Below are positions 4,385-57,327 of a stretch of DNA of 64,000 nt, in pieces. Below the pieces are notes generated by a model that was given only the letters and a program-made list of their open reading frames with translations, did no database searches and was not told where the DNA came from. The stretch is from a virus: IMG/VR virus record IMGVR_UViG_3300020045_009879, positions 1 to 64,000 of that record. One strand, 5' to 3'. The position numbers and the translations under genes are program-made. Within the stretch, counting starts at the first letter, position 1. Each line of letters starts with the position of its first letter.

Positions 4385-4783
4385 ATGGCAAACACAAAGA
4401 GAGTGCAATATGTGCGCTCACAACCAGAATTTGTATTAAAGGATAAATATTTATCCCCAAAAGGGATGAGGATGATGGCTGTTTTGTCCAAAAAGATAAC
4501 CGAAGACACATCCATTACGCCTAAACTACGCAAGCATATTGAGAAAGAAATTTGGGCTAAATATGGCAAAAATCGCTATACCGTTAACCCAGAAAGCGTA
4601 ATTATCAAAGGCATCATTCACACAACACCATTGGCTGGTAACATAGCCACTAAAGAAGAACTGCCTCCGGTAAAATCAGCACCAGTAGAAAAATCTAAAG
4701 CTAAAAAGTCCTTTCTAAAGACATTGGCAGGCATTGTAGGTATGTTATTGATCATTCTTGGTATTAAAAAACTAATACAATGA
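4385..4783 (+). CDS. basic protein with C-terminal transmembrane anchor
   Basis: LAGIVGMLLIILGI tail. Confidence 0.7.
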   Translation: MANTKRVQYVRSQPEFVLKDKYLSPKGMRMMAVLSKKITEDTSITPKLRKHIEKEIWAKYGKNRYTVNPESVIIKGIIHTTPLAGNIATKEELPPVKSAPVEKSKAKKSFLKTLAGIVGMLLIILGIKKLIQ

Positions 4784-35547: not shown

Positions 35548-35654
35548 TGGATGAAGAAGTATTGCTTTGTCCCCATTGTTTTGGGATATGGGATGGGGTC
35601 TATTGTTTAGAATGTGGATTTAGTGTATTTAGAATGGACCCTTATTATGATTAA
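35547..35654 (+). CDS. 35-aa Zn-ribbon microprotein (not in ORF track)
   Basis: MDEEVLLCPHCFGIWDGVYCLECGF...; TAATG coupling. Confidence 0.55.
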   Translation: MDEEVLLCPHCFGIWDGVYCLECGFSVFRMDPYYD

Positions 35655-35804
35655 AAAATAATATTATGAAGGTAGAATTTTCAATGTGTAGCTTTGATAA
35701 TATCCTGTTAGGATTAATGACAGCAAGAGGACAGGATGAGGATGGTGAATTTATTACCTTATCGCTGGGATTATTATTCTTTGAGGTAAGTTGGTATTGG
35801 TATT

Positions 35805-35840
35805 AAAAGAAAAAGCGGCTTTTGGCCGCTTATCTTTTTT
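35805..35840. terminator. bidirectional intrinsic terminator between the convergent gene blocks
   Basis: A-tract, aagcggct-ttt-ggccgctt hairpin, T-tract. Confidence 0.85.
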
Positions 35841-38800
35841 CTATTTGTTCTGTGGTATTCCAGTGCTTCTATCCCTAAATTTATAATAGACGTTTAGTAT
35901 TGGGAATGTTTTTATAAACCTTTCCTTAACCTGCTGATCATTATAATATGGATCACCTAATAGATGATGATAAAATGTTGTCATTAATTTTCTATAGTCA
36001 TCTAAAAATCCTAACGCTGGAATAAGATTATCTGTTGTTGTCTTAAACGATCTTGGATCTATAAAAAATGTTATATCTTTAATAGTATTATTCATATTAT
36101 TCATCAGAAGATATTTCCATCGTTTTGTTTCTTTATCATCGTCGTCAAGCGATGCAGACAGTAATAAATATGCAGCAGCAAGAGTTAATAATACTTTTAT
36201 CTCTATAAATTGTTTGCGAAGATTAGATATAAATAATTGCTTATCTTTTGTCAGCAATTTAATACCATCAAAAGATGCTTCTCCCTTAAACATTGCAAGT
36301 TTTGCAAATATACTACCCATCTGCGCAATACCAGAGAATAATCCCTCCCTTTGTACAAATTTTAACATGGTGGTATAAGTACCCTCGAAATCTCTACCAA
36401 GAACACCTAATGATTGTCTAGGCGCAAATCTGGTATATACTCCATCAGCAAGCCAGGACATACGATATTGAGCTACTAATCTGCCAACTATAGACCTTTT
36501 AAGCATGATAGAAGACTCTTTGGCCATGTTACCATGCAGTAACTGGTTAATAAATTTAACCTTATTCATAAAGGCTAAAAGCTCTTTGTTTCCAAGTATT
36601 GATTCTGAATTAGATCCCCAATCATTATTCTCACCAAATTCCTTTGCATTCCATGATCCATCAACATTAAACGCATCAATAAGATTTCTTTCTTTACCAT
36701 TGATATCTGTCATCTTAGTATGATGCATCATAGCATCCATAACTGATGTTCTTAAAATATAGTCACCCTCGCTAAGCCATCCAAAAGCACTAAAGAATTT
36801 AGTACTATACTTATTGGCACCGGCATCACCACCATAATTTTCAGCAAGAATCCCATTACGAACTGCAATATTATGAATTTTGTTATTGGTTAAGTTCTTA
36901 CTGCCTGCAGTTTTTTTTAAAGAGGACATAGCCCTGCCCCATGAGGCAAGAGCTTCTTTTGGTGTAAATTCAGATCTTCCTGCTGCATGAGAAAAAAAGT
37001 TTATTGAACCAAATAATATATTAGTAACGGCTGGAAATGGGTTAAAAGCAAATGTTTTGATAGCTGCACCAGTAATTAATATATCACCAGCTTGTGACCA
37101 TACAAAATTAGAGCCGGTAGAATCTGTAAATTGTTTATAAACAGATATCTTGTAATCAAAATCTTCCTTAGTTATCTCGCCATTATCATACGCCCATGTA
37201 AGATCATCTATTAATTTTAAGATTTTACCACCGGCAATCTTTTCTGTCTCTAGAGTAACAAGAGACGGATATTTCTTTAATATTTTATTGATGGCCGCCT
37301 CTTTGCCAAGCTTAGCAACTAAATCATTGAAATCTACAAGTATATTGATCGCTTTCTTTGGATCATTGATAGATATAATTTTTATATTATCATCATAAAT
37401 CTTTTTAGCACTAACACCTTCTTTATCGGAGGATTTATTGTATAAATTATTGTTTATAACGTGGTCAATAAGCTTCCTTAGGTTGTGGAGTTTATCCTCC
37501 CCTCCATTACTTTTTTTTGTGTTGGCAACGTCAATAGTTCCATCTGCCTTTAATATAATCCTTCCAAAACTTTTATCATCAATGGCAGACTTTATGAGTA
37601 ATGCATAATCCTCAATGGCAGATAAATGCTTATAAGTAATTGCCATCTTAGCAAATTCTATCAAATTACCCTCTAAATTATCACTCTTTTCGGCGACATC
37701 TAAATTTCTTAGATATTGCATTGGGATAACATTCTTAGGATTACCATCTCCATCGAGAAATTCAAGTTGCATCCCATTCCTTGAAGTTACAGCACTCATG
37801 AGTCTACCTGACAGCGTAGTGGGAATACCCCTTAAACTACCCTTTAATAGCTTATTTAATAACTCTTTCCTTACATTGGGTATAAATGTTCCATCTATAT
37901 CTTTTGAGGCATATCCTGGCAGATAAGAGGCATATTTTGTAAGCTCAGATGCGTGGGCATCATAAAACTCAAGCATCTTAGGATTAGACAATATTTTATT
38001 GACAAATCTATTATCATACGACAATAAATCTTTTCCGCTTGAACTATTTCTAATTGGTACCTCAACGATATGCTTATCAATATCTCCGAACATCCTTATA
38101 TCATCTTCAGATGCAGTATCATTATAAATGTAATTATAATATTCTGATGGAGATGTATTTTTTCTATACTCATTAAGAAATGATTCTGATTCTGCCTCCG
38201 ACTTACCCGAGGCCACAAGTTCTTTCTCCCTCTCTTCTATGTGGTCATATAGTTCAGTCCAACTTTGTTGTTTTACCTTAGCCTCTTCGATTAATTGCTT
38301 TGAATATTTCTCATCATGAGTGATGTTATTTAATTCGTTAAATAACTTATTTAAACCGTGTTCTGTAGATAATAATTTTGTGTTAATAGTATAGACATTA
38401 CTCTTTAATGCCTCTGATTTACGCTTAACTTCCCTTAACATTTTCGCTGCAGAATCCTTTTTATTACCATACTTAATATCATTTATCTTCTCAACAAAGT
38501 CTTTATCAATTGTTTTCCTGAAGGTATAGTAACTTTTTGTGAATCTAGAGATAATGCCACCGTCCCAATTGCCATTTTCATCTGTTGACAACATGTCCTT
38601 AAAGTTAAGTCCAGCCTCTTTTAACTTTGCAAATAATGATTTAATTCTATTTGCCGCATCAAAATATTCATTATGAGATTTTGAATTTGCAGACGTTATA
38701 AACTTATGTAATAGATTAACTATAGGCTTGTCGCTATAATGAGCTAACCCCAATGAATAGGCTCCTATTGTGCCTATATCAGACTCTCTAGACACGGCTG

Positions 38801-40001
38801 ATGTAGGTATTTCTAGACCAAACATATCCTTACCAACCTTCTTGATGAATGAAGGCAATATTTTACTATGCAGTTTATCAAAATCAGCATTAAAAGCTTT
38901 TCTTTGAACACTCAGTACTCCTTCGAGAGTCTTTTTATCCAAGCGCATTCTTCCTCCGAATACATTACGAAGATTCTGCCACATAGAAATAGCTTCTCCT
39001 ACAGCTTTTAATTCTTCTGCCCCTGGATTCTTGGAATTTAGTATAGAATTAATCCATGCAGCATTCTTTTCATATAGTGCATCCAGGTTTGCAATGTTTT
39101 TCTTACTTGCTAATGTAGATAATTTGGTTTGCATTATCACCAAGTTCTTTTCGTGATGTTCTTTCTTCTGAATTAATGCTGCCAATTCATTCATATTGGC
39201 ATCTGTCTTACCAAGTAAATTGATCTGACTTTCTATCTCCTTAATTCTATTCTCAACCTTTCCAATAAGCCTATATAATTCTGCATTTCTTGCCTTAATT
39301 CTATCAATAACAAAATTAAGACCCATCTTTAGATTTACTTCAAGGGGGGAGTCTTTAAAGAATGCCCGAGAAAAATCATCTTCATACAATGCAGCAGGAT
39401 CATATTCATTCTCTAACGTGAATAAATCTTCTTCGTCTAATATATTTTCCTCAATATAATTTAACTCTCCGTCGTATTCTTCATCGTTATCACCAGAAAC
39501 AAACTCTTCTCCAATAGTATCATCGACATTATCCTCAACTTCACTTTCTGGGACATAATCAATTAGGTCATCATCTATAATGGAATCAATATCTGCCTCT
39601 ACTGGATCTTCGCTATCAGTATCATCCGGTAAACCCTCTTCAATATTATCACCTGATGGAATATTTTCTTTAGTATATTGATATTTCTGACTAGTATATT
39701 TCTCTCCAAAATCTATATTGAGTTTTAGATTAAAACTGTTTTGCTTACTCCGTAATATATCATTGGTACTAACTGCAACACCGTTAAGTGTGTAGAAATG
39801 ATTCTCTCCAACAGAACTACTATATTCGGCAAGAGACTTAACTAAGTTAACTGCATCTACCTTTGTTAATGTGGAGGTTCTTTCGAACTTATTTAATACA
39901 TTAGAGGCAAGATTGAGGTATGTCTTTATGCCCTCTTCTCCGTATGTAGAGACTAATCTCTTTAATGTAGGATCTTTTATATCTTTAATTTTGCAGGTCA
40001 T
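35841..40001 (-). CDS. large virion ejection protein (third of the RNAP block)
   Basis: 1386 aa; follows the vRNAP as in crAss-like phages; hydrophobic helix near the C-terminus. Confidence 0.8.
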   Translation of the reverse strand: MTCKIKDIKDPTLKRLVSTYGEEGIKTYLNLASNVLNKFERTSTLTKVDAVNLVKSLAEYSSSVGENHFYTLNGVAVSTNDILRSKQNSFNLKLNIDFGEKYTSQKYQYTKENIPSGDNIEEGLPDDTDSEDPVEADIDSIIDDDLIDYVPESEVEDNVDDTIGEEFVSGDNDEEYDGELNYIEENILDEEDLFTLENEYDPAALYEDDFSRAFFKDSPLEVNLKMGLNFVIDRIKARNAELYRLIGKVENRIKEIESQINLLGKTDANMNELAALIQKKEHHEKNLVIMQTKLSTLASKKNIANLDALYEKNAAWINSILNSKNPGAEELKAVGEAISMWQNLRNVFGGRMRLDKKTLEGVLSVQRKAFNADFDKLHSKILPSFIKKVGKDMFGLEIPTSAVSRESDIGTIGAYSLGLAHYSDKPIVNLLHKFITSANSKSHNEYFDAANRIKSLFAKLKEAGLNFKDMLSTDENGNWDGGIISRFTKSYYTFRKTIDKDFVEKINDIKYGNKKDSAAKMLREVKRKSEALKSNVYTINTKLLSTEHGLNKLFNELNNITHDEKYSKQLIEEAKVKQQSWTELYDHIEEREKELVASGKSEAESESFLNEYRKNTSPSEYYNYIYNDTASEDDIRMFGDIDKHIVEVPIRNSSSGKDLLSYDNRFVNKILSNPKMLEFYDAHASELTKYASYLPGYASKDIDGTFIPNVRKELLNKLLKGSLRGIPTTLSGRLMSAVTSRNGMQLEFLDGDGNPKNVIPMQYLRNLDVAEKSDNLEGNLIEFAKMAITYKHLSAIEDYALLIKSAIDDKSFGRIILKADGTIDVANTKKSNGGEDKLHNLRKLIDHVINNNLYNKSSDKEGVSAKKIYDDNIKIISINDPKKAINILVDFNDLVAKLGKEAAINKILKKYPSLVTLETEKIAGGKILKLIDDLTWAYDNGEITKEDFDYKISVYKQFTDSTGSNFVWSQAGDILITGAAIKTFAFNPFPAVTNILFGSINFFSHAAGRSEFTPKEALASWGRAMSSLKKTAGSKNLTNNKIHNIAVRNGILAENYGGDAGANKYSTKFFSAFGWLSEGDYILRTSVMDAMMHHTKMTDINGKERNLIDAFNVDGSWNAKEFGENNDWGSNSESILGNKELLAFMNKVKFINQLLHGNMAKESSIMLKRSIVGRLVAQYRMSWLADGVYTRFAPRQSLGVLGRDFEGTYTTMLKFVQREGLFSGIAQMGSIFAKLAMFKGEASFDGIKLLTKDKQLFISNLRKQFIEIKVLLTLAAAYLLLSASLDDDDKETKRWKYLLMNNMNNTIKDITFFIDPRSFKTTTDNLIPALGFLDDYRKLMTTFYHHLLGDPYYNDQQVKERFIKTFPILNVYYKFRDRSTGIPQNK

Positions 40002-40002
40002 A

Positions 40003-43000
40003 TTAACACTTAGTTTTAAATATATTATTATTTAATGCATGCCTAAAGGCGCTTCTTTCTTCTCTGGTGGAATTACTCAAGAAATCCCTTACTGTACCAG
40101 TAATCTGTTGAGAATCAGAATCTATAATTTCATTTGGGGCATACTTTTGAGTTGCTGATCTGATAATATTCTTTTTAAGTTTCTTTGCCTTAGTATTCAT
40201 TAATTCATTCGTAAGCATCATATTTTGAACCATGGCGGCCTCTAATACACTTTGCTGATTAACAGATGAACCATTGAAGAAGGATACTATAGAGTCAAAG
40301 AATGATGCAAATTTACTAAATAACGTTTCGAGCAATGATTTACTTTTCTCTACACCAATCTTTTCGTATGTGCTATCGCTAAGATATACACTATTCATTA
40401 GATCTTGGATGTGTTTTCTAGATGATAGTTCTGAGATAAAGTCCATCTGACTATTTAGCATATACAAGGATTTCCTTAGATCATCTTGCATATCTTTATC
40501 ATCCGCAAAGATACTATTAATTGCCTCGGAATCCAACCTCCCATCTTTGATAAATTGTCCATATGTAAGTGGCTCATCATCAATTATAAAGTTAGCGCCA
40601 TCAAAAGAGCTTACAATGGGTTCATCACTAATGGCACCCATGGCATCGTCGTATATCATGTCAACATTGTCAGCTATCTGTTTGAACCTGGGGTCGCCAT
40701 TCTTACCAAGAAGATATGACTCTGCCATCATGGAGTGCTGTATCTCGTGTAATATCGTTTCTTTTGCAAAAGACATTGAGCCAGTCCTATCTATCTCTTG
40801 CTCAAATAAACCATTATATATTGTTATCTGACTCTTGCCATCTACAATATTAAACTCTGCAATAGAGTTATTAACACTTGGTTCATCGCTGTATTTAACA
40901 GATATATCCTGAATATTATCTGGAAGTTGTTTCAGCAACTCTACAATCCATTTTGAATATGTAGTATCAATCTGTTCTACTACAGGTAATAAAGATCTAA
41001 CATCTGTCTGCTCCTTAAGCATACGCAGGAAGAATACCTTCTCTGTATTAAAGTCATTAGATAAAGAGTTAATATTTGCCATTCCTCCAACAAAATAACC
41101 TGTAGATATTGCATCTGGTTTGTAATCAGTAAAATACCCAGAGTCGAATACCTTTTTACCAACCTTATTCATTGAGGACTCAAAATAAGAGGCCGATCCT
41201 TTTAATATAGAATAGTCATATTTTTTGTATAATGCAAGCTTATTATTTCCACTACTTATCGGAGAATCAAAGATATATATATTAGCATTAGGAGAACCCT
41301 TAGAGCTTTTTATAAACAGAGGTATTTCCTCTAATTTAAAATTTTGCCCTATCCTTACAAAATTCCTGTCTAAACTTTTATGATAATTACCCCCGACAGA
41401 GTTAAAATTAGAATACCTGGAATCCAGTACATTAAATGGTATTATATACTGAGGATTGTTTCTATAGAATAAATTAATAAACTCATCTACATGTGATCCA
41501 TCTCTCAGATCTCTTACTTTTTCTGCAAGCTTAGAATAGAACCCGATTGACTCAAGGGCATCTATTGGTATCACTTTTACAAAACTTGTCTTGGTTTTAT
41601 TGCCACTAGTAAGAAATTCATACATTATTATTGATGTAGTCAATTGTCTAACATCATCATCGGTATCTTTAGATAATGTATAGAATCCATCCATGGCCCT
41701 CTCTAAATCTGCATTGTTTTTTAGATCACCATTAAATGAAATGATTTTGTTTGTCTTATTAATAGACACAGATGTAAGAAACTTATTATTTTTATATTTA
41801 GAGCTAGTACTTGACTGTAACTCCCTGATTTTCTTGGATATATTGGCACCAATTTCTTCTACCGTTCCGTGGATACCAAAAGATTCAGATATAACTTTAG
41901 AGAATACGTAAGACTTATACCCATCAACCACAGAACTTATCATCTGCGGTTTTGTCTTTTTGTTCAATCCGTTAAATAATGTAATCTTATCTATGGCGGT
42001 CATTAAAATACTACCATTATATCCAAGCACTTTATCTATGTCAAAGATTATATCCTCTGCCAAAACTAAATTATTACCGGTGGTATTCAATTCTCCATTA
42101 AGAGATTGGGTAAACTTGTCAGAATTGATTATGGATCCATCATTACCTGAAGACAATATGCTACTTAATAATAAGTTATTCTCTGCACTATTAGATTTAA
42201 ATCCCTTATCAAATCCAGTTTGATTATTAAGATCAAAGAGTTTATTGGCTATCTTAGACAATGGGGTAAAGATATTCTTCATAATATCTATCTGATGAGC
42301 CACCCATAACGCCTTTGTTTCTGGCAGTGCCCCTTGTCCGGATACAAGTTGCTGCCCCGTATTATAAATATTATACAGTTCTTGCTCATTATAGACCTTG
42401 CTAGACAGTTTCTTTGTTTCAGTGGCAACTTGTACCGCTGTTACATCTAATTGCCTTAAAAGGTCTGCAAATGCAATCTTTGTGGCAGTCTTAAGATTCA
42501 ATGTTTTTCCGCTAGTTCTAACAACACCCTTTGAATTACCAATAAGACCAGATACTATCTTAACGATCTCTTGGTTTAGTATCGCTGGAACATATGTTAG
42601 TGGCAGTGAATTATTATTACTGTCGGATAATAACATAAGAGATTCTGCAATATTGAATGTAAAACTATTTAGTCCGTTGGGGATTAAATTACCATTCTTT
42701 GCATTGTCAATAGATTCTGATAGTAAAATAACTATATTTCTAAGTGCAGTTCGATCTTCGAAATCCAAACTAAGAGACGAATTGCTTCCGGTCCATTTGC
42801 CAACAACAGATTTGCCGTATGGATTTATGTATCTTAAAATCAATGGATTAGATCTTCCATTAAGACTAAGTTTTGATACGGATAAATCTTTAAAGATCAT
42901 ACCCTTCTTATATGCGAGTATAATGGACGACATTGCCTTTGCATAAATATCAATACCCCCTTTGGCGGACTGTTGTGATTTATATTCTTGTGTTTGACGC

Positions 43001-46000
43001 TGCCATGAATACCATGGTGCTTTTGGCTGTAATATCTTATATTTCTTGCCAGTATCTTTTAGATCATCGGCATCTAATGCCTCAAGGGACATTCTTGCAA
43101 CATTGGGGTTAGATAATACAGACTCAAATAAATCAACGTAATCATTCTCTATTGCTTGTCTAGAAACATCCTCTACAGATGGGCGACTATCTTCGTTAAA
43201 ATTACTTTCTATGAAACTATTTACTGCGTCATTATTAATTGATACATGACCATTTTCATCGTATTGAGTTACACCTTTTGGGATAGAGACAAGTTTATTA
43301 TCTTTTGTTAAAAATGCATTCCTCCAATATTGGTATAATTTATCAATGTCAAAGTCGGATCCAGTCTGAACAACGATTTCTTGCGGTACTATAACCATTG
43401 TGCCCATACCCTTAGGCGTAAATCCAACGATCTTAAATAACACCTGAGACTGATGCAACTGGTTAGGCAAACGCATCCCTATGATGTTAAGTAGCGATGG
43501 ATCTATATTGTTTAGGTCAATACTATTCATATTGACAGAACTTCCCATTGATATAAAGTCAAATGGTAAAATTATTTCTGCAACATGAACTTCTTCGCCG
43601 CCATTCTCTTTAGGTTTTATTCTAGTGTATTTTAATTGCTCACCAGAATCCCTGCCGTTAAACATTACGACGCCATCACGAGGAACAATTTCTGTCTTAA
43701 CAGTAACCTTACCGCTCCCAGTCAGTGGGAACTGCGGATTAGCCCTGCCTGGTCTTTGCAGTTTAATGACATCTGTATATTGAGAGAACAGAAATTCTTC
43801 TAGAGATTTCCTTGAATATGACCAGAACAATGGTAACCCATATTTATCTGCAACTAGTGCAGAGTTTGATTCATTATTTGATATACCAGAGTCAACTTTT
43901 ATGGCTTTTTTAACTATCTTTTCAATGTCAAATTCGCCATCAGTCTTTAGAGATTCATCAATAGATTGTTTGGCTATCTTTGATAATTCTGCATTAATAC
44001 TGTGTTTTCTGAGGTCTAACTGTTCCCCAGAAATCTTATCTCCATGATGGGTGAATTCTTCGTCATATAACCCCCCAAGGATTGACTTATCAGCCTGAAC
44101 AACATTCGTCTGTAATCCTTCACCTAAATGCGTAGGAGTCTCTTGTTGATAACCAAAACCAGTCCATGGAAGTTCTCCTGACGATTGGTCTAATGCAGCA
44201 CGAAGATCTTTTGCATTTTTTATTGTAAATGCTGAATCTTTCCCGTATATTGATACGGGAGTAATGCCCCCCTGTTTGCCGGAAGATTTATGAGGAATCC
44301 TACCAATGTGTTGATCTTTAGAAGGATCTTCATCATAACCCATCTCCATAGCCTCAACAAGATTAACTAAATCTTGGTTAACAGACTTTGCAAATTCTTG
44401 AGTTAAGGGTAGTTCTGCAGATTTCATGAACACCTTTACCGCAATGTTCTCTCCACCAATTTCTTTTACAACAATGGCTACCTGTCTTGGTTTACCTGCA
44501 CCGATAATAAAATGTTTACTATATTTTTTATTTACTGTGCCATCCTCTGCATATTGCCTTCTAAGCTGAACAAATTCCCAATCTTTAATTACTCCAGTAC
44601 GATATAATGCATCTAACTTATTATAGAAAGAAACATACTCTAAGCCATCGGTACCTTTACCAGTATATTTATCGACTTGATTTTGCAGATTCTTTGGTAG
44701 AGACGTTAGATAGTCTTTACCGTCCGTACGGGAATCATCGACATAAGCAACCTTATAAGTTGGTTTACTAGATATAACAGATCCATCGTTGAGAGTAATA
44801 GTGTATTCTCCAACTGCATCTACGGCTGGAGATATGTCTGATGACAATCTCTTCTGATACTCATTCATAAATTTCTCCATCGCAGAGTTTATTGCGATAG
44901 CATTTGATGGATCTTTTATGCCATTGACCTTATTGTCATCTGACTCTGACTTAATCATTTTCTGTAAAGACTGTGAGGATTGTGCTGGATCACCAGACAT
45001 AACTAACCCAAACCCACCCATGATAGAGAATGAATTCATTGATGACTCCAGAGACAATAATGATAACACACGAAGCATCTCATCATTATAGATATTATTC
45101 TTGTGTGATGAGGATTGATTTGGTGAGACCACAAACTCATCGTCAATTTGTTCGTCATCAAAGATATCTTCAGAAGCATATTCATTAGATACAGTCTGTT
45201 TCTTCATAAATGGAGCATATCCTTTTGATTTTCCCCATTCGTATTTTATTAGGTTAGTATAATATTTACTACCACTGGTTTTAAGCAGACCTAGTTTCTC
45301 CCAACTATTTAAGTCTGAGCTTATCTGACTTATAAAATGATTATATAATGCTTCTTTAAATTTAGCCTCAATATGCTTTTTATTAAGATCTAAATCGCCA
45401 ATGCCTTTATCTGTATAAATTGAACCATCTTTATTTCTCTTTATCAATCCATTTAAAAATGATGCAGAATAAAAAAACTGAGAGTTATATTCATAGTTTG
45501 CACCAAGTTGTTTTTTCATCTCCTTAACAACATCGCCATCCTTATGCGTTAAAACGTATATCATTCTATCTAACTCTGCAGAAACAACGGTCATAGCATT
45601 AGACATTAACTCACTATCCATGATCTGTCTCTTGCCAAACCTACTAATCAACATGTTGCCATCAACGAATGATATCAGGTCTGTAAGTTCTGCTTTTCCA
45701 CCTTCTTCTGCAATAGCATTTAACTCAACTCGTGGCACCTTAAATATTGGAGACTCTTTTTTGTCAGACTTAGTAGTATCTAGAATAGACATAAAACTAC
45801 CACCTTCTTGGAATAGATACATAGCATTGACATGAAGATCCACGTCACTAAGATTACTTCTCTCTGCACCATCATTAGTGCCATACTCCTTCATGGCATA
45901 GTTTTCGTCATATTGGAATCCATTGGTAAACTCGTCGCTGGCAGATTCTATGATGCCATAATCTCCAACCCTTCCCCCAAAGTGTCTATTATTGAATAAT

Positions 46001-47832
46001 GCCAATCTTCTTAACCCAACAGTAGACGCCAATGTATCTCTTAATGCAATATTAGTCTGCAGATTTCTGATAAGATTAAAGTTTGGAGATGGTTGTTTGT
46101 AATTATATCTAGGTTTACCGCCAATACCAATGAAGTTATTTGCAAAGAATCTATTAGACGCCTTCCCTTCAATATTGGCTAAGAATCTTAAGCCGGTCTG
46201 ATTTAGGTCGTTAATAAGTTTATCGGATATTGCAGACGAAGTGATCTCGTCTGCGTTTAATTTTTTAATATCAAACTTAGACAAAATATCTGCAATAGAA
46301 CCAAATACACCAGACTTTAAGTGTGATGTGGAGAATCCTTTAGATGCAAGATTATAAGAGTTCCTTCTATTGTAAAGAGTCTTAGCGTCACCAGATAGCA
46401 ATGCAGCAAAAGAATTATCAGACAGTTTTATCCCAAGATCCTCAAGCATTCTAGTGGCATAACCCTTAATTAAATTATTCTTATCTTCATTGGATAAAGA
46501 TCTATTCTCTTCTAAAAGGGTTTTTAGTGATTTAAACTCCTCACCAATACTCTTTATATGATCAGCATAGCCAAACAGATTCCCCACGAATTTAGACTCA
46601 TACAGAAGGTCTAGTACGTTAGATATGTCTGAATACCATTGCTTGATAACAACGCTCTCTATGCGACTATTATTGGCCTTGGCGACCCTGCTAGCGGCTG
46701 GATCTTTACTGTTGATTAAAATGACAACGGGTTGGTTCCGCTGTTTATTCATTGCATTCTGAAACTGAATCCTAAGTTGCTGATTTTTACTATCGTTCAG
46801 AGTATTGTATACAACCTCAAAGAAATTATCTTTCGGATGGTTTTTTGACTCATTTAAGAGTGTGTTCATCATACCTTTCTCTGAGAAATCATTATTGGCA
46901 GTCAGCACCATTAACACTTCTTTATAGACCCTAGACTGGTCATAGAGTGTTGTTACCCCTAGATTATTGCCTCCAAAGTCTTTAATACCCATCATCATCG
47001 CCTTTACCTGTGCAGACGAGTATTCTTTAGGGTCCTTGCCAAGTGAATCGTCAACATCAAAAGATTTCTCCACTACATCACTATCAGTAGCATCCTGCAT
47101 AGTAGCATCTTCTGTAACTATTGAATTTAAAAACTCATCATCAAGTGAGAGTAATTGTTTTAATTTTCTTTTATTTCTAGACCTAAAGCGAATACCATTT
47201 AATTCTAAAAGGTTTATTGCATTATCTTGTAACTTATTCCATGCGTCATTGTCAAGAATCTTATCGTAAGACCTATTGGCAGTTTTTAATGCCCTTAATA
47301 GTGCCTCATCATTTTGTGTTAACGTACTCTTACCGGCTAGTTTGGAAATGTCTTTTTCTACAGCATCCTTAAGCGTTGTAATAGTATTTTTGGCACTAGT
47401 CATAATATCCAATACCTTAGCACTTTTCTGGTGTAATAAGGCCTGAGACACCTCATAGGTAATACTATCTACTGCAGCAGTCTTTTCTCTGAGCGACAAT
47501 ACTTTACCATCAGATGTTTTAACTGTATATGTGAAGTCCCGATTTTTCTTGGGGATATATTCTATTGGACTATTTTTTGTTACCTTACTTTCCTCGTTTT
47601 GAATATTCTGCATGGCAACAGACGCCTCTTCTGTACTTAAACCACGCAACAATGTGCTCCTAGTCTCTTCGTCTAACTTAATAAACTCACTGGCATATGG
47701 AAGGCCGTCATTAGATATATTGCCATGGGTCTTATTCCAGATATTATGGGCAATATTCTCATCCTCTACCCTTTTGAGTAAATTCTTATATGAGTCGTGA
47801 TTTACATTTGGACATGTTACTTTCCTTGCCAT
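40003..47832 (-). CDS. virion-packaged single-chain DNA-dependent RNA polymerase with C-terminal zincin-like domain
   Basis: GSDFDIDKLY catalytic motif (43339-43356), R.P.Q..QS, DNAK; HEIQH at 40735-40749. Confidence 0.92.
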   Translation of the reverse strand: MARKVTCPNVNHDSYKNLLKRVEDENIAHNIWNKTHGNISNDGLPYASEFIKLDEETRSTLLRGLSTEEASVAMQNIQNEESKVTKNSPIEYIPKKNRDFTYTVKTSDGKVLSLREKTAAVDSITYEVSQALLHQKSAKVLDIMTSAKNTITTLKDAVEKDISKLAGKSTLTQNDEALLRALKTANRSYDKILDNDAWNKLQDNAINLLELNGIRFRSRNKRKLKQLLSLDDEFLNSIVTEDATMQDATDSDVVEKSFDVDDSLGKDPKEYSSAQVKAMMMGIKDFGGNNLGVTTLYDQSRVYKEVLMVLTANNDFSEKGMMNTLLNESKNHPKDNFFEVVYNTLNDSKNQQLRIQFQNAMNKQRNQPVVILINSKDPAASRVAKANNSRIESVVIKQWYSDISNVLDLLYESKFVGNLFGYADHIKSIGEEFKSLKTLLEENRSLSNEDKNNLIKGYATRMLEDLGIKLSDNSFAALLSGDAKTLYNRRNSYNLASKGFSTSHLKSGVFGSIADILSKFDIKKLNADEITSSAISDKLINDLNQTGLRFLANIEGKASNRFFANNFIGIGGKPRYNYKQPSPNFNLIRNLQTNIALRDTLASTVGLRRLALFNNRHFGGRVGDYGIIESASDEFTNGFQYDENYAMKEYGTNDGAERSNLSDVDLHVNAMYLFQEGGSFMSILDTTKSDKKESPIFKVPRVELNAIAEEGGKAELTDLISFVDGNMLISRFGKRQIMDSELMSNAMTVVSAELDRMIYVLTHKDGDVVKEMKKQLGANYEYNSQFFYSASFLNGLIKRNKDGSIYTDKGIGDLDLNKKHIEAKFKEALYNHFISQISSDLNSWEKLGLLKTSGSKYYTNLIKYEWGKSKGYAPFMKKQTVSNEYASEDIFDDEQIDDEFVVSPNQSSSHKNNIYNDEMLRVLSLLSLESSMNSFSIMGGFGLVMSGDPAQSSQSLQKMIKSESDDNKVNGIKDPSNAIAINSAMEKFMNEYQKRLSSDISPAVDAVGEYTITLNDGSVISSKPTYKVAYVDDSRTDGKDYLTSLPKNLQNQVDKYTGKGTDGLEYVSFYNKLDALYRTGVIKDWEFVQLRRQYAEDGTVNKKYSKHFIIGAGKPRQVAIVVKEIGGENIAVKVFMKSAELPLTQEFAKSVNQDLVNLVEAMEMGYDEDPSKDQHIGRIPHKSSGKQGGITPVSIYGKDSAFTIKNAKDLRAALDQSSGELPWTGFGYQQETPTHLGEGLQTNVVQADKSILGGLYDEEFTHHGDKISGEQLDLRKHSINAELSKIAKQSIDESLKTDGEFDIEKIVKKAIKVDSGISNNESNSALVADKYGLPLFWSYSRKSLEEFLFSQYTDVIKLQRPGRANPQFPLTGSGKVTVKTEIVPRDGVVMFNGRDSGEQLKYTRIKPKENGGEEVHVAEIILPFDFISMGSSVNMNSIDLNNIDPSLLNIIGMRLPNQLHQSQVLFKIVGFTPKGMGTMVIVPQEIVVQTGSDFDIDKLYQYWRNAFLTKDNKLVSIPKGVTQYDENGHVSINNDAVNSFIESNFNEDSRPSVEDVSRQAIENDYVDLFESVLSNPNVARMSLEALDADDLKDTGKKYKILQPKAPWYSWQRQTQEYKSQQSAKGGIDIYAKAMSSIILAYKKGMIFKDLSVSKLSLNGRSNPLILRYINPYGKSVVGKWTGSNSSLSLDFEDRTALRNIVILLSESIDNAKNGNLIPNGLNSFTFNIAESLMLLSDSNNNSLPLTYVPAILNQEIVKIVSGLIGNSKGVVRTSGKTLNLKTATKIAFADLLRQLDVTAVQVATETKKLSSKVYNEQELYNIYNTGQQLVSGQGALPETKALWVAHQIDIMKNIFTPLSKIANKLFDLNNQTGFDKGFKSNSAENNLLLSSILSSGNDGSIINSDKFTQSLNGELNTTGNNLVLAEDIIFDIDKVLGYNGSILMTAIDKITLFNGLNKKTKPQMISSVVDGYKSYVFSKVISESFGIHGTVEEIGANISKKIRELQSSTSSKYKNNKFLTSVSINKTNKIISFNGDLKNNADLERAMDGFYTLSKDTDDDVRQLTTSIIMYEFLTSGNKTKTSFVKVIPIDALESIGFYSKLAEKVRDLRDGSHVDEFINLFYRNNPQYIIPFNVLDSRYSNFNSVGGNYHKSLDRNFVRIGQNFKLEEIPLFIKSSKGSPNANIYIFDSPISSGNNKLALYKKYDYSILKGSASYFESSMNKVGKKVFDSGYFTDYKPDAISTGYFVGGMANINSLSNDFNTEKVFFLRMLKEQTDVRSLLPVVEQIDTTYSKWIVELLKQLPDNIQDISVKYSDEPSVNNSIAEFNIVDGKSQITIYNGLFEQEIDRTGSMSFAKETILHEIQHSMMAESYLLGKNGDPRFKQIADNVDMIYDDAMGAISDEPIVSSFDGANFIIDDEPLTYGQFIKDGRLDSEAINSIFADDKDMQDDLRKSLYMLNSQMDFISELSSRKHIQDLMNSVYLSDSTYEKIGVEKSKSLLETLFSKFASFFDSIVSFFNGSSVNQQSVLEAAMVQNMMLTNELMNTKAKKLKKNIIRSATQKYAPNEIIDSDSQQITGTVRDFLSNSTREERSAFRHALNNNIFKTKC

Positions 47833-47833
47833 A

Positions 47834-50800
47834 TTATTTCTTGCATATATCGTGAATATTCTCTATCTCTTCGTCATCATCCATGGTTATCTCAAAACCA
47901 CCAGAGGTAATTGTTACCTCATTAGAACTGCCAATAACTTCAATTTTCTTTGAAGTATTACTATTATCCGCAACAGTCTCGGTAACGATTGGTACAACAG
48001 TTAGCACCTCCACTATAGGCTTTTTAGATTCTACCGATATATTAGGAATTTCAAATTCTAATACTGGTTGCACAAAATATACTCCTTTAGTAGTATTGCC
48101 AAACGGTATCTCGCCAGCAACCTTAAATTGAATCATCCTATTGTTCTTATAGAAATCGCTAATAGTCTCTGCCTCAACAGTATGCGTGCCGTCAGGATGA
48201 ATCATTATTACATTATTGTCGGTATTACCATTGTTATCTAGGCCCAGATGCTTCTTGGAAAAGTTCATTAACATACTAGATGCGTCGGACGTCAACATAT
48301 TTATCTCCGCATTAGTAGGTTTGACCGCTTCGAAAATAGTCTTAGTGCTTCCCGCGTGTTTCCATTCAATAACGAATTTATCATTCTCATCAAAGTTCAT
48401 GTGGAATTGCCATCCCTTAGATTTAGACGAATTTAACAACGTGGTAATATATGAGTATAAACCCATTCTCCTTAACTGATCAATGCTTTTTGTTTCTGGA
48501 TTCAATCCATTTCTTAATCTATATTTAGATCCTAGATCATGAAGTATATCTTTTACACCTTTATTTTTATAGAACATTTCTAATGCGGTACCTATTGATG
48601 CAGACCATTTCTCTCCAAGTGGACTTGCGTAGGCTATCTGTGGAGACAGCATGCCATTAGCGGTGGGAACCATTACAACGGGAGTACCATCAATAGCCTT
48701 GAACATTATACCATTAGTAATTGGATTACCATTCACATCCTGCGCAACACCACCTTGCATAAACCCCCACATATTACCAGATGAACCAGTATATTTCTTT
48801 ACATCTTCCTCTAGGTTCGGAGCACTCTCGGTGATTGGCATCTTTTCTTCTGTAGAGAAAATCATTCCTGCACCTACGTTGGTAATTTTAGATTCTACCT
48901 TAAAATTCTTATTGCCCTTATTGAACTGCTTTTTAAATTCTTCCCTAAGTTTATCTATTGAATCTATGTCTTGTACTATTTTTGTCTCACCCTCTTTATT
49001 ATCCGCAGGAGCAATGTGTGTTCTTTCTCTAGCATCATTTCTTTCTTCTAGCCATGCGTGTTCTGGCAGATAACCAACCAATTCATCATTAATAAATATG
49101 CCGATTGGCATTTCATTCTTTTTGTTATCCCCATATGTAAGATTATCTTTGGCTGCATCACTAGGTGATACGTCTTTAGTGGCATAAGAACCATCTTTTT
49201 CGTTTACTATTGGCCTTCCATTTATACCTCTTTGAATGGATTTAACGGCGCCATCGACGACTCTTAAGGTTATTTTTGCACCATTAGTAAAGGAGAAATC
49301 TGAGTTCTTTAAAAACTCCTGATTGACACTGTCAGGGTTACTCTTAATTAACCATTCGCCAGTAGATTCATTCTTTACGTAGGAATATTTTGATGCAAGA
49401 TAGTTTACAGCAATTGCCATTAACCTCTTTCTGGTATCCATTAATGTAGATTTCTTCTCACTATCTAGTATCTTTGACGCTAATTCTCTGGCCTCCTTGG
49501 GAGATCTATTTACTATACGATCTGGCCTCTTATTCGTTGGTTCAACCTCTTTTTTGTCAGAATATGTTTTGATGATGGACGACATGTCTAATTGACCACC
49601 CTCAGCGACATGTGCAACAACTTGATCGTAAATATCTTTGCCAATAATATTCTCTCCAATAACAACCTTAGTGTCTGGATTTTCAACAGCCTGAAACATA
49701 TGCAATTGGTTGTTTAGCTCCTGTGCGCCCTTCATTACCAAAACAATAGCCTCTAATTCAGAAGTTGCATTCGTAAGATGCCGTATCTTAAACTTCTTTC
49801 CGTCAGGAGTTGGGAATAGTGTAAAAAAATTATCTGGATTACCATTTACACCATTTTCTTTTACTAAATGCACTGCTGGATTTTCTTTATCAAATTTAGA
49901 TCCCGTAATATCTTCATATTTATCTTGCGGAACACTGGTCAGTTTTACAATGTTATCTTTTACCTTTTGGGTACCATCTTCGCTACTAGTTACATACTTT
50001 GAATGCATATATTCTTCCTGTACGGAATTACCACTATTGGTAACTATAGACGGTATAACGCTATTAACATTATCAACACTTGGAGTAGTTCTAACCACTT
50101 CATTTGCATATATTTGCTTTTCGCCGATAGGAGTCTCAATTACAATAGGTTCTGTCTTTGGAGTAATATCAGCAGCATTCTTTGTAGCCTTTGCATTATC
50201 AATTTGATTCTTAACCTCTTCGGCCTGCTTCTTCCTATCAGACCTGAGCGCATCCCTTGTTTCTTCTGAAATTGCAGCTTTATATGCTTCTTTGGCCTCG
50301 TCCATCATCGTTGTTAGATTTGACCTAAGTGCTATTAAATTCTTTATATTATCCTTGCTATTGAATAATTTTTCATCTAATGTTCCGTCAAAGTTGATAT
50401 TTTGCTCTAAAGATTTTTGATTTTCAATTTCCTTATCCGTTGACTCAATTTTGTCTTTCAACACATTTATGCCAATAACATATCCAAGTATTTCTTTAGC
50501 ATTTTCTCTACCGGATAAGTCTTCCCCCTTAGCAAATTTTACAACACTATTAAGTTTCTCTATGGCAAGTTGCGCCCTCTCTTTTTCTTTGGGGGTGGAA
50601 TTTCTATTTTCTAAAACATTCTGAAATGCGGCAATCTTTGTTTGTGTTCCAGATAGATTAATGCCTACACCTTCCTCCGAGTTTAATGCATCGACTGCTA
50701 CAGAAGATATAGCCATATCATATCCAAATGCCTCAGGGTCTGCGTCTACATCTTTAGATGTCATAAAGTCTCTAATACCATCGACCTGTCCTATTGATGT

Positions 50801-52102
50801 TTCTGCCTTAGATATTACATCTTTTTTCCCAGATAATAGTGCTGCGTCTTTTAAATCCTTAACTGCGCCCTCGACTCTTTTATATGCAGGAACAATATAA
50901 TGTGTTATGGCAGTATTACCACCACCGCCAATGGCACCGAGCATCATGGATTCTAAACCCTGTGGTTCAACTAAATGTGATAATGATCTAGATAAATTGT
51001 GTTTGAATTTATCGCCCTGTTCGCCCTTTAAAGACGATTCTGACTGTGCTATATAGTTAACGCCCTCTTCTGCGCCTTCCTGCAATGATTCTATGCCAAT
51101 AGATCTTGCAATACCCCCCTCTAACTTAGTTATGGTTCCACGTGCTCCAGTAAATAGTCCTGCAGATGTTAGGTTAGATAATACGTTCAATCTGTTAATA
51201 CTAACGCTTACGTCGGCAGCAGCAGAGGCTGCATCTCTAGCATCATCATCAGACATTCCCTGTGCCATCTTCATCTGATACACCTGTTGATATTGCGGCA
51301 CAGCCTCCATAACGCTCTCTGCCTGATTTAGAGCCACGGCATTCAATACTGTGGGGGCAGCATATAATCTTTTTGCTACAGAGTTTTCTATGAACTTAGG
51401 AATAGCACTCTCAGTTATCTTTCCTGCACTAAGCAGCTTTTGTGCACGTGCATTCGCGCCTAGTTTTAATGCTTCTATACCGGTCTTACCAGCAACAGCA
51501 TCAGCAGCAGCAGACATCAACCCACCAGTTATATATCCAGTAAGAGCAAAAGATCCAACAGAGTTTAATAGTTGCGATAAATTATCCCAGTTATAACCAC
51601 TGTCAGAGAAATTAAATGACTCTCCTGGGTTTTTCCTGTAGATAGGTGCTTTTGAATTAACCCATGCCATCATAGAGTCGGTGGCCTTTTCTATTGGATT
51701 GCCATACTCATTGTCAATATTAGCATAGTCCTCAAAGTCTAATATATCTGCAAGATTACCTATTGTCCCGAGTATTGTGTTAGGGATAAGCCTCTTAGCA
51801 GTATTAAACATCTGCTGATAACCAGACTGAGAGTCTGCCCTAAGCGCATTAATATTAGTATCTTCGGAGAGTAGTGCAGCATTAGGAATGTATTCTGAAT
51901 AATTTCCAATAGGTTCAACCATGCCAGCAGTATCATAGGATACTCTAGAGGCAATCTTTGGATCATACACATCCCTTGGTTTGCCTATGTTATATATAGG
52001 ATTACCAAACGCATCGCGTTCGTAAGATGCAGCATTCTCTATCTGTGCAATTTGATTTTGCTTATATAATGGTTTGGCTGAATTTGGAATCATTATTTCC
52101 AA
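47834..52102 (-). CDS. large virion ejection protein (first of the RNAP block)
   Basis: 1422 aa; EG.EE..NY and LGAIGGG segments typical of ejected channel-forming proteins. Confidence 0.8.
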   Translation of the reverse strand: MEIMIPNSAKPLYKQNQIAQIENAASYERDAFGNPIYNIGKPRDVYDPKIASRVSYDTAGMVEPIGNYSEYIPNAALLSEDTNINALRADSQSGYQQMFNTAKRLIPNTILGTIGNLADILDFEDYANIDNEYGNPIEKATDSMMAWVNSKAPIYRKNPGESFNFSDSGYNWDNLSQLLNSVGSFALTGYITGGLMSAAADAVAGKTGIEALKLGANARAQKLLSAGKITESAIPKFIENSVAKRLYAAPTVLNAVALNQAESVMEAVPQYQQVYQMKMAQGMSDDDARDAASAAADVSVSINRLNVLSNLTSAGLFTGARGTITKLEGGIARSIGIESLQEGAEEGVNYIAQSESSLKGEQGDKFKHNLSRSLSHLVEPQGLESMMLGAIGGGGNTAITHYIVPAYKRVEGAVKDLKDAALLSGKKDVISKAETSIGQVDGIRDFMTSKDVDADPEAFGYDMAISSVAVDALNSEEGVGINLSGTQTKIAAFQNVLENRNSTPKEKERAQLAIEKLNSVVKFAKGEDLSGRENAKEILGYVIGINVLKDKIESTDKEIENQKSLEQNINFDGTLDEKLFNSKDNIKNLIALRSNLTTMMDEAKEAYKAAISEETRDALRSDRKKQAEEVKNQIDNAKATKNAADITPKTEPIVIETPIGEKQIYANEVVRTTPSVDNVNSVIPSIVTNSGNSVQEEYMHSKYVTSSEDGTQKVKDNIVKLTSVPQDKYEDITGSKFDKENPAVHLVKENGVNGNPDNFFTLFPTPDGKKFKIRHLTNATSELEAIVLVMKGAQELNNQLHMFQAVENPDTKVVIGENIIGKDIYDQVVAHVAEGGQLDMSSIIKTYSDKKEVEPTNKRPDRIVNRSPKEARELASKILDSEKKSTLMDTRKRLMAIAVNYLASKYSYVKNESTGEWLIKSNPDSVNQEFLKNSDFSFTNGAKITLRVVDGAVKSIQRGINGRPIVNEKDGSYATKDVSPSDAAKDNLTYGDNKKNEMPIGIFINDELVGYLPEHAWLEERNDARERTHIAPADNKEGETKIVQDIDSIDKLREEFKKQFNKGNKNFKVESKITNVGAGMIFSTEEKMPITESAPNLEEDVKKYTGSSGNMWGFMQGGVAQDVNGNPITNGIMFKAIDGTPVVMVPTANGMLSPQIAYASPLGEKWSASIGTALEMFYKNKGVKDILHDLGSKYRLRNGLNPETKSIDQLRRMGLYSYITTLLNSSKSKGWQFHMNFDENDKFVIEWKHAGSTKTIFEAVKPTNAEINMLTSDASSMLMNFSKKHLGLDNNGNTDNNVIMIHPDGTHTVEAETISDFYKNNRMIQFKVAGEIPFGNTTKGVYFVQPVLEFEIPNISVESKKPIVEVLTVVPIVTETVADNSNTSKKIEVIGSSNEVTITSGGFEITMDDDEEIENIHDICKK

Positions 52103-53712
52103 GCTTTAGATGAGCGATATATATCTTCGGCCCTCTGGATTGAATTTGTTGCGTCTTGATCTCGCTGAGAAGACGTCTCTGGATTATGGAGAACATTTAC
52201 GGCCTTTTTTGCTGCATAATATAGGGGAGAGGTGGGGTTAATATTGATCGTTCGCGGTGGCATACGTTTTGTCCCCTCCTTGTACTCAATTAATACTGAT
52301 ATAAATGGTTTCCCGGTTCCATTGAAACTTCGCCTACCATCTTTGTCTACCAAAGATTTACCCTGAAATCCAAGATGAGTAACTTCCGTGTTAGTTATTT
52401 CGGCAGTACCATCCTTAATTTTCTCTAAAAGATCATTATCCTCAGAAGAGTAACCTCTATTCACAAAATCTCCAGAGATCAAACCATACCGCAGTGGTTC
52501 GTCTAACGTTTGCCTTATATTGTAAAGAACTTCTTCCGACGCTGTCTTTCCAAGGTCGGCTACTTGTCCTTTATTTATTCTAAATTTCTGTGTATGTGTG
52601 AAATATGGATCTGTCCTTAATTCGTCTTTTAACTGTTCTCTCTTTTGCACTAATCCCTCAGGATCAAATAATCCAGATTTATCCAGTATTGATGGAGTAT
52701 AATCTCTCCATTTTTGATTTTCCTCTGTAATTCTGCGCTGCATACTATCATAATCATACTTGCCATTAGTTAATTGCCTTGTGGCAACATCTAATTGCTC
52801 TTTCTTGACTGGATTTTCTGCTGCCAAAGTTAATACATCATCACTGGGTTGTAGTATGTTTAATGTTGAACTATCTTCCTGATCAATAAAGTCCGTTCTG
52901 GTTTCTTTCGCCCCATTTTTGCCCTTATAGTTTTCTTTCATATATTGTGCTGAGACCGGTGCACGCTCCATTCCACCAACAACACCAGACATAATACCGC
53001 CGGTAATAGCATCTCTTACCTCTGAATGTGTGGGATCTAAACCCCTAGATTTTGCTATCTCATTAACCTGTGCATCAACAAGGCTCTTAAATTTAGGATC
53101 TGTCTGATATGCTTTAAATGCATCATCCTGAGTTTTAAATCCATGGACGAAATTCATTATGCCAAGATCAAGATCTGTTGTGTCTCTTCCAGTAATACCC
53201 TGTGCATAATTCTTTCCATATGCGGCCCCAAGACCAGTGAGTTTATCTCTGCTTACAACCTGAAAACTATTTAATGCACTAGGATCTTTCCTGTATTCAT
53301 CGAAGGATTTCTCTAGTGGACTTGTTCCTACGATAATGTTATCACCATCCATTCTGGCCTTAGAATACTCTGCGCCCCATTTCTCTCTCGTCTTGGCAAA
53401 GTCCTGCATTGGTAAAACCTGGGTGGCGTATAATTGCCTAAGTTGTCTTGCATCGTCTACATTCTTCTGTGTGGCGCCTTCTTTGGATATTTTATTAAGA
53501 ACTTCGTTATACTTCTTAGTAAACTCTTCTTGCTTAGGTGCAGCCTCTCCTAATGCCCCTTGTAAGGTCAAATTAGCCTCATTCATGGCATCAACCTGAG
53601 ACGTTAGCGCTTGATCCCTCTTGTATAGTTCTTGCGGCCCAAACATGGACTCCTGCATTGTCATTGGAGAATATTCTGCAATTGGTGCATTTCCCCAGAA
53701 TCTATTTGCCAT
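52093..53712 (-). CDS. virion cargo/ejection protein
   Basis: 539 aa, Cys-free, Y.P...E...P N-terminus; synteny. Confidence 0.72.
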   Translation of the reverse strand: MANRFWGNAPIAEYSPMTMQESMFGPQELYKRDQALTSQVDAMNEANLTLQGALGEAAPKQEEFTKKYNEVLNKISKEGATQKNVDDARQLRQLYATQVLPMQDFAKTREKWGAEYSKARMDGDNIIVGTSPLEKSFDEYRKDPSALNSFQVVSRDKLTGLGAAYGKNYAQGITGRDTTDLDLGIMNFVHGFKTQDDAFKAYQTDPKFKSLVDAQVNEIAKSRGLDPTHSEVRDAITGGIMSGVVGGMERAPVSAQYMKENYKGKNGAKETRTDFIDQEDSSTLNILQPSDDVLTLAAENPVKKEQLDVATRQLTNGKYDYDSMQRRITEENQKWRDYTPSILDKSGLFDPEGLVQKREQLKDELRTDPYFTHTQKFRINKGQVADLGKTASEEVLYNIRQTLDEPLRYGLISGDFVNRGYSSEDNDLLEKIKDGTAEITNTEVTHLGFQGKSLVDKDGRRSFNGTGKPFISVLIEYKEGTKRMPPRTININPTSPLYYAAKKAVNVLHNPETSSQRDQDATNSIQRAEDIYRSSKAWK

Positions 53713-56466: not shown

Positions 56467-56475
56467 ATCTTGCTA

Positions 56476-57327
56476 TTAATAATCTGTAAATAAATAACCA
56501 CCAGTAGCATGAACATTCTTCATTTTACCTCCATGGCAAAATTGTGGTTGTTGTGGTATCAGTCCCTGTTCCGCAGCTTCCTTCATTTGTTTAGCCTCTT
56601 CGTTGGCCATTTTAAGGCGATTTAAGAACACTTCTTGCCCCTTCTGGGCAATTGAATCATTAGGTCTATCTTTGATGTATTTAGAGGCCAATTTAGACGC
56701 TGCAGCGAATGTTTTGCCTTCATATTTCTCTGGCAGGTTATACTCCTTAGCACCCATAACTGGAAGTCTATCTGAATAGATAAAATCCTTAACCTTAGTT
56801 TCACCCTGTTCTACGAGATTTGGCTGACCATTTTGCTGTGATATCCCCTGCGGTATTCCGTTAAGTGGGTTCTGTTCGTGTCGACCACCTGTATTGAACT
56901 GCGTAATACCTGGAAGTTCGCCTCCATCGGCAGCATAAATATTACCTGTCTGAGAATTAATACCAGACATCATCAAATCACCTTTGGCCTGATTGCTCAT
57001 TCTATTTGCAAAATCCATTCTTTGTTTATCTTTGGAGGCTGTGATGGCACTTATGCCGCCACCAACTAACGCACCAACGCCCATACCTATTGGTCCTAAT
57101 GCTGCTCCCGCGGAAGCTCCACTTAGCGCGCCCTTGGCTATTGCTCCACCAATAGAACCTTCTGGGGTCAAAAGATCCACGCCCTGACCAAGTATTCCCG
57201 CCCCACCAGCGATAGCACCCTGGTTCTTGTTCAAAAACTGGCCGGTTATACTGTCAAGACCCATGCCTCCCATGAAGAATAGATTTCCGCCATGGCTTTT
57301 TATAATGGGCAGATTATTTTTATACAT
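56476..57327 (-). CDS. virion cargo protein with Gly-zipper membrane segment
   Basis: GASAGAALGPIGMGVGALVGG; GG.HE.NP..G...VE.GE motif. Confidence 0.78.
   Translation of the reverse strand: MYKNNLPIIKSHGGNLFFMGGMGLDSITGQFLNKNQGAIAGGAGILGQGVDLLTPEGSIGGAIAKGALSGASAGAALGPIGMGVGALVGGGISAITASKDKQRMDFANRMSNQAKGDLMMSGINSQTGNIYAADGGELPGITQFNTGGRHEQNPLNGIPQGISQQNGQPNLVEQGETKVKDFIYSDRLPVMGAKEYNLPEKYEGKTFAAASKLASKYIKDRPNDSIAQKGQEVFLNRLKMANEEAKQMKEAAEQGLIPQQPQFCHGGKMKNVHATGGYLFTDY

Follow-up and report, generated by a model that had tools for sequence, protein, structure and literature searches.

Three giant cargo proteins of a divergent crass-like phage, here called A, B and C, carry their only cysteines at the termini that face each other, and we propose that they are probably joined end to end by inter-protein disulfides at docked tips, forming one injectable thread. 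Their genes lie in a 64,000-nucleotide stretch (the window; positions 1 to 64,000 of IMG/VR virus record IMGVR_UViG_3300020045_009879, a contig of 95,871 bp), among five consecutive large minus-strand genes that span positions 35841-56466 (Table 1). A, B and C together contain four cysteines in 5,414 residues, all at most seven residues from the two internal junctions; the count is still four in 6,844 residues when the two proteins encoded upstream (539 and 891 residues) are added, and most other open reading frames (ORFs) of the window have a cysteine content of about 1-3%. Randomly placed, four cysteines in 5,414 residues would put one into each of the four seven-residue zones facing the junctions with a probability of about 7e-11. 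A first-pass annotation of the same DNA had proposed a head-to-tail disulfide chain from these four residues, and the translations match exactly the cysteines and codons that it named, as the sequence does the TAA-T-ATG that it read at both the A/B and the B/C junction. Its 1422-residue A with a cysteine at 1420 is right as to the codon but not as to the start: this frame begins with TTG, whereas the public protein set starts A (P0012, 1419 aa) at the ATG at 52093, where start codon and upstream stop overlap, and the cysteine is then residue 1417. The depletion also reaches further than the block then described, since the 539-aa and 891-aa proteins are both free of cysteine.

The affiliation of the block is clear from several matches. 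Residues ~1130-1530 of B match crAss-like genes annotated as 'putative RNA polymerase' with 23-26% identity (tblastn), and B finds crAss001 gp50 and the phi14:2 polymerase with E about 1e-11 (BLASTP). Its GSDFDIDK motif is invariant across 11 homologues (alignment A1) and corresponds to the DFDxD motif described for crAss virion polymerases (bioRxiv 10.1101/2020.03.07.982082). In other crassviruses the three proteins are found as a single fused giant of 4,700-6,700 aa: residues ~30-400 of A align with the N-terminal parts of such giants, with p-crAssphage gp45 and with crAss002 gp32, and C is collinear with their C-terminal parts and similar to crAss001 gp49. Among the upstream neighbours, the 276-aa and 1413-aa proteins match crAss001 gp43 and gp44 (the muzzle protein) with E values of 1e-32 and 2e-30, and the 283-aa and 891-aa proteins match the crAss001 cargo protein gp45. 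The giant protein bearing the two-barrel DFDxD motif is thus found, with two large partner proteins, downstream of tail-tubular, muzzle and cargo C1/C2 genes. Judged from these matches, A, B and C are the putative RNA-polymerase-associated cargo trio of a divergent crass-like phage. By analogy with crAss001 and phi14:2, whose cargo proteins were detected in virions by mass spectrometry (PMC10172136; bioRxiv 10.1101/2020.03.07.982082), the trio would be packaged in the virion and ejected. Searches of PHROGs and Pfam gave no match for any cargo protein of the window, and a PDB sequence search gave none for B. B also has an HExxH motif at residues 2362-2366, without a Pfam match, that is invariant in alignment A2, nearly invariant in A1 and kept down to 24% identity, and which would place a possible zincin-like site in the C-terminal region of the polymerase protein; in p-crAssphage a zincin protease is annotated in the upstream protein.

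Homologues retain all tip cysteines at identities of 42-93% to A, 47-92% to B and 52-89% to C. The C-terminal cysteine of A is at the same place in the relatives P0013-P0015 (42-93% identity), Cys2609 of B is invariant down to a 24%-identical relative, and M1 and C3 of C are among just 26 invariant columns in an alignment of 14 homologues (18-89% identity). More distant giants (22-27% identity) have few cysteines, again at the extreme ends. A scan of viral contigs with a single protein as query found nothing; an alignment-seeded scan of IMG/VR succeeded and returned 80 polymerase loci, with 75 non-redundant crAss-like loci counted. When the junctions in these loci are sorted by cysteine, 71 have it on both sides and six on the downstream side only, none has it on the upstream side only, and 44, for the most part the upstream C1|C2|A junctions, lack it altogether (Fisher 8e-27, uncorrected for shared ancestry among phylogenetically non-independent loci). 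The block proteins contain 224 cysteines in 427,966 residues, just 67 of them internal. About 95% of the junction ends bear a cysteine, whereas at the outer ends of these proteins it is very rare (absent from 31 of 32 N-ends and 57 of 61 C-ends). Additional, non-homologous split sites at -265, -2265 and -2409 relative to DFDID are also cysteine-tipped, and tips are retained across gaps of 400-500 nt that contain other genes. Chance is rejected as an origin of the tip pattern.

The tips also covary with gene fission and fusion. Cysteine is entirely missing from eight complete all-fused giants (4,730-5,639 aa) and from an open-ended one longer than 6,718 aa, A+B fusions have only the C-terminal tip, and B+C fusions have only the N-terminal one, 13 of 15 being cysteine-free throughout their C-ward part. 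In the fused giants the N-terminal part is collinear with A and the C-terminal part with C. On a FastTree tree of the polymerase core, the state has changed between split and fused at least 11 times at A|B and at least nine times at B|C, both counts being approximate because the tree is fast and partly unresolved. The comparative expectation set out in the first-pass annotation, that junction cysteines be conserved in orthologues and lost where genes are fused, is hence borne out in full. At the level of single residues, the N-terminal 160 aa of B were too variable to be mapped onto the fused forms, its last 500 aa had no BLAST match in the IMG/VR loci, and a regular-expression search for the tip motif inside fused proteins was too noisy for use.

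Cultured phages display the same layout. In crAss001, gp47 has its sole cysteine at position -2 from the end, gp50 has Cys5, one internal cysteine and one at -8, and gp49 has its sole cysteine at residue 5. gp47 is encoded on the plus strand and gp50 and gp49 on the minus strand, so that gp47 and gp50, although both tipped, are neither adjacent nor co-oriented; the pairing is therefore a protein-level trait, independent of gene adjacency. The phi14:2 proteins of 1797, 2180 and 1421 aa have the same tip layout, p-crAssphage and FpV4 follow the rule, and crAss002 does so if the start of gp33 is the internal Met33. In these last three phages the first cargo-like protein has a lone near-terminal cysteine, and the terminus that faces it in the adjacent annotated gene offers no partner: at -1 in p-crAssphage (857 aa; L083:820-3393), at -7 in crAss002 (557 aa; L084:1343-3016) and at residue 5 in FpV4 (598 aa; L085:2779-4575). 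Outside the crassviruses, T7 gp15 and gp16 are free of cysteine and have no facing tip pair, and T7 gp14 has a single cysteine at residue 2 without a partner; cysteine-poor ejection proteins are therefore not paired-tipped by default.

The tips are small modules rather than lone residues, a feature new in this analysis. The C-tip cysteine is 0-2 residues from the end in 67 of 79 tipped junctions and is flanked by lysines, and the N-tip cysteine is at residue 3-5 in 73 of 79, residue 2 being mostly Ala or Ser. When the first 80 residues of the tipped downstream proteins are compared, a single BLAST cluster takes in 45 of 79, including both N-tips of the window (B and C); its members come from A|B-type as well as B|C-type junctions, and 44 pairs match across these classes at E<1e-3. 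Cysteine is the sole invariant column in an alignment of 33 N-tips. An AlphaFold2 model of the B N-tip predicts a cysteine-bearing leader followed by helices at 13-22 and 25-35; its quality is graded moderate because the mean predicted local distance difference test score is 68 (block value about 84). Run against all block proteins, a profile of the N-tip module hits 41 N-termini versus five weak internal sites. The N-terminal module, predicted as two helices, recurs at non-homologous junctions. On the other side, the C-tip of B shares with six other loci the pattern ER..F..L...G.h.hKC (helix-Gly-strand-Cys). In one 3299-aa fused A+B ORF (L032, ~4400-4500), a weak internal match to the N-tip module at residue 949 (E 0.01), with Ala replacing Cys, may be the relic of a former junction.

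Three loci (L025, L044 and L061) document how a split can arise. Their polymerase is divided at a third site, about 265 residues before DFDID, and when judged against the fused genes of L018 (the sister of L025) and L075 in the same clade, the insertion comprises ~95 aa ending in a Cys tip, a ferritin-like gene and ~60 aa starting with a Cys tip. In this lineage, the gene comparison indicates that fission came as an inserted cassette bringing both tips. Ferritin-like ORFs of 157-170 aa (PF00210, E 1e-12 to 1e-22; 2-5 cysteines each) lie in gaps between Cys-tipped cargo genes at three different junction positions (L025:9061-9534, L044:9054-9530, L061:9202-9687, L028:13496-13987 and L026:15931-16443). 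A link of these genes to thiol or iron redox chemistry at the junction is possible. No ferritin or thioredoxin Pfam match was found across the window's own 95,871-bp record. In another locus (L074:7356-9320), a Cys-tipped giant is followed by two ORFs, first of 92 and then of 345 aa, that both have a Cys tip at either end, with a GIY-YIG nuclease ORF (E 2e-8) between them; the arrangement looks like a small multi-link junction containing a selfish nuclease.

The mechanism that we favor is as follows. Where a polypeptide that is single in other crassviruses is split, the new C-terminus bears, within a short tip, a cysteine 0-2 residues from its end and the new N-terminus a cysteine at residue 3-7 followed by the small two-helix module. 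The two tips of a junction would dock, and their thiols would form an inter-protein disulfide inside the particle, a chemistry that we infer by analogy with the cyanophage A4 pair discussed below. Covalently linked in this way, A, B and C would act as a single thread, A-B-C, almost without branches. Having no other cysteines, this thread would be free of cross-links, so that it could pass the portal and tail partly unfolded, in a fixed order and at 1:1:1, and the reducing cytoplasm could later separate the links.

Several points weigh against this scheme. The gut is anoxic and the cytoplasm reducing, and the moment at which the tips would be oxidized is therefore unclear. The 71 concordant junctions reflect shared inheritance in many cases, not independent events, and the numbers of state changes are rough minima from a quick tree in which 27 of 78 inner branches are unsupported. 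Three of 60 B|C junctions (in L008 and in the sisters L026 and L037) have no tips, with cysteines 130-400 residues from the end instead, the upstream cysteine is 14-31 residues from the end in L031, L063 and L064, and the fused B+C protein of some gut phages (p-crAssphage, crAss002) has several internal cysteines. As a separate observation, the three untipped loci have an extra ORF of 525-697 aa between B and C, which in L026 and L037 contains a CxxxxC pair.

The comparative data establish pairing and not chemistry, and the tips might join the proteins end to end through a shared metal ion or through a thioether, thioester or peptide ligation made during assembly. There is a histidine three residues before the cysteine in the A tip and another five residues after the cysteine in the B N-tip, and ferritin-like genes occur within five junction gaps of relatives. 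We nevertheless consider such other thiol chemistry unlikely: a metal ion is poorly held by just two thiolates and the nearby histidines are not conserved, Pfam revealed no ligase or intein-like domain, and the sole solved example of this sequence signature, in A4, is a disulfide. A split intein or trans-splicing in particular is rejected. A split intein has an N-intein of ~100 aa whose first residue is Cys or Ser, while its C-intein has Asn as the last residue and is followed in the extein by Cys, Ser or Thr; cysteines 0-2 residues before the stop and 3-7 residues after the start are the reverse of this layout. Neither an intein nor a Hint domain was found by Pfam, and the cassette boundaries of L025, L044 and L061 have no conserved intein residues.

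It is likewise quite improbable that the tip cysteines bond something other than the neighbor in gene order, either in homodimers or with a capsid, portal or tail protein. The unpartnered cysteines of p-crAssphage, crAss002 and FpV4 would fit this alternative, as would the fact that crAss001 structural proteins do employ disulfides. However, the tips come in facing pairs, with no upstream-only junction and with bare outer ends; both members of a pair disappear together on fusion, the all-fused giants needing no cysteine; and the A4 pair is a hetero pair, C-end to N-end. Intramolecular cyclization of B is rejected, as A and C have one cysteine each. Hardly credible, lastly, is a by-product in which cysteine is just tolerated at floppy ends or is encoded by a nucleotide signal for translational coupling: cysteine suppression in ejected proteins is known for Schitoviridae (PMC11445570) and both window junctions are a tight TAA-T-ATG, but relaxed constraint at termini is contradicted by the bare outer ends and by the T7 proteins, and a nucleotide-level signal by the opposite strands of the crAss001 partners, by tips that persist over 400-500-nt gaps and by the varying distance of the cysteine from the stop or start codon.

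Returning to the disulfide-linked thread, the modularity of its tips leads us to a more tentative idea, which we regard as possible but on balance doubtful. A junction would be a self-contained, transferable connector, made of a Cys-ended C-tip and an N-terminal two-helix tip, that can be inserted at many positions in a giant ejected protein and splits the gene while function is retained, since the tips would link the pieces back into one thread. Sometimes it would hold a passenger gene between the tips, such as the ferritin-like gene or the GIY-YIG nuclease. If true, this would be a protein-level counterpart of the intron or intein for proteins that need to travel as a single chain. Two related notions are unsupported. 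There is no sign that cognate types of C-tip and N-tip move together between junction positions (0 cross-class pairs are similar on both sides), nor that the two junctions of one phage deliberately use different tips, for which 0 of 16 are similar, yet only ~1 is expected by chance.

Table 1. Coordinates of the cargo genes, tips and motifs in the 64,000-nucleotide window
Feature	Position	Strand	Length	Remarks
Protein A	47834-52093	minus	1419 aa from ATG (1422 from upstream TTG)	First link of the proposed chain; sole Cys is residue 1417, third from the end
Cys codon of the A C-terminal tip	47843-47845	minus		Protein ends ...ICKK
Protein B, putative virion RNA polymerase	40003-47832	minus	2609 aa	Cys only at residue 7 and at the last residue
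Cys7 codon of B	47812-47814	minus		From the translation
B N-terminal tip module	47728-47832	minus	residues 1-35	Cys7, then PNxN and predicted two-helix hairpin
B catalytic motif GSDFDIDK	43339-43362	minus	residues 1491-1498	DFDxD motif of two-barrel polymerases
B HExxH motif	40735-40749	minus	residues 2362-2366	Possible zincin-type site, motif level only
B C-terminal tip	40006-40071	minus	last 22 residues	...KTKC; last residue Cys2609, codon 40006-40008
Protein C, last link of the proposed chain	35841-40001	minus	1386 aa	Sole Cys is residue 3, codon 39993-39995
C N-terminal tip module	39906-40001	minus	residues 1-32	Same BLAST cluster and alignment as the B N-tip
Cargo-like protein, gp46 position	52093-53712	minus	539 aa	No Cys, no tips; outer boundary of the proposed chain
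891-aa protein	53791-56466	minus	891 aa	Free of Cys; matches crAss001 cargo protein gp45 in its C-terminal third, E 2e-5

Upstream of the chain, the gp45 homologue is also divided into two ORFs (window 53791-57327, minus strand): the 283-aa protein corresponds to gp45 residues 326-563, which include the portal-bound domain, and the 891-aa protein to residues 564-798. No Cys tips are present at this split, and the one cysteine of the 283-aa protein is 19 residues away from the C-terminus. Just downstream of gene C, a plus-strand replication module and the minus-strand structural and cargo module converge, and the GC skew changes sign at ~35600-35850. Far from the block, at 1854-2132, a 92-aa ORF with 16 cysteines (17%) lies on the minus strand, antisense to the plus-strand genes around it; it could encode a Cys-rich metal-binding peptide or be a spurious frame.

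No other phages of the human gut are as abundant as crassviruses, whose polymerase-associated cargo of about 700 kDa is delivered through a narrow tail. With a conserved end-to-end tether, if true, the cargo would exit as a single thread, at 1:1:1 and in a defined order. The free interchange of split and fused gene forms across the order would be explained as well, and the scarcity of cysteine that has long been noted in ejected proteins would have a positive rationale, namely the avoidance of branches in the thread.

The closest known cargo proteins are those of crAss001 (gp47, gp50 and gp49) and phi14:2 (the polymerase with its two neighbors), which are homologous to the window proteins, share DFDID and have the same tip-Cys pattern, although their identity to them is only 22-30%. 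The structural atlas of crAss001 proposes partial unfolding of the cargo and describes disulfides in virions, both at the portal vertex and in the tail (Bayfield et al. 2023, PMC10172136); neither this atlas nor the phi14:2 preprint (Drobysheva et al., bioRxiv 10.1101/2020.03.07.982082) mentions cargo cysteines. In the preprint, cleavage of the fused forms into parts is proposed; the tip pattern, in contrast, points to selection for keeping these parts together.

Schitoviridae also combine a giant virion polymerase with partner ejection proteins and show strong cysteine suppression (N4 gp50, DEV gp71-gp73), which has been explained as avoidance of periplasmic disulfide catalysts (PMC11445570). 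These proteins differ in having essentially no cysteine, and so no tips, and in a polymerase that is T7-like and not two-barrel; B, with its two-barrel DFDID and its tip cysteines, does not fit an operon of that type. A more distant analogy, with no homology claimed, is offered by the docking domains of modular polyketide and non-ribosomal peptide synthases, short C- and N-terminal modules that set the order of successive giant polypeptides. They differ in being non-covalent and in serving an enzymatic purpose.

The nearest parallel comes from cyanophage A4 (Anabaena phage A-4L), in which a disulfide between gp27 Cys1715 and gp26 Cys5 was observed in the cryo-electron microscopy structure of the pre-ejectosome (PNAS 2025, PMC12002296). 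The statement of the first-pass annotation that no such system had been described was therefore too strong, although our literature search found nothing closer. We checked the A4 genome: Cys1715 is the sole cysteine of gp27 (1717 aa; position -2) and Cys5 that of gp26 (1114 aa). As in the window, these are consecutive giant internal or ejection proteins, with a sole or near-sole cysteine at the C-end of the first protein and at the N-end of its successor. A4 differs in having one link, versus two or more in the proposed crAss chain, and no RNA polymerase is involved. BLASTP at E<0.01 matched neither gp27 nor gp26 with any protein of the window or of the crAss blocks, and the resemblance thus appears to be functional, not familial. 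The A4 authors report a single bond and not a rule, and mention neither covariation with fusion nor modular tips (PMC12002296). With that bond already known, what is new here is the crAss-wide tip rule, its covariation with gene fusion, the modularity of the tips and, in one lineage, a fission that seems to have been borne by a cassette.

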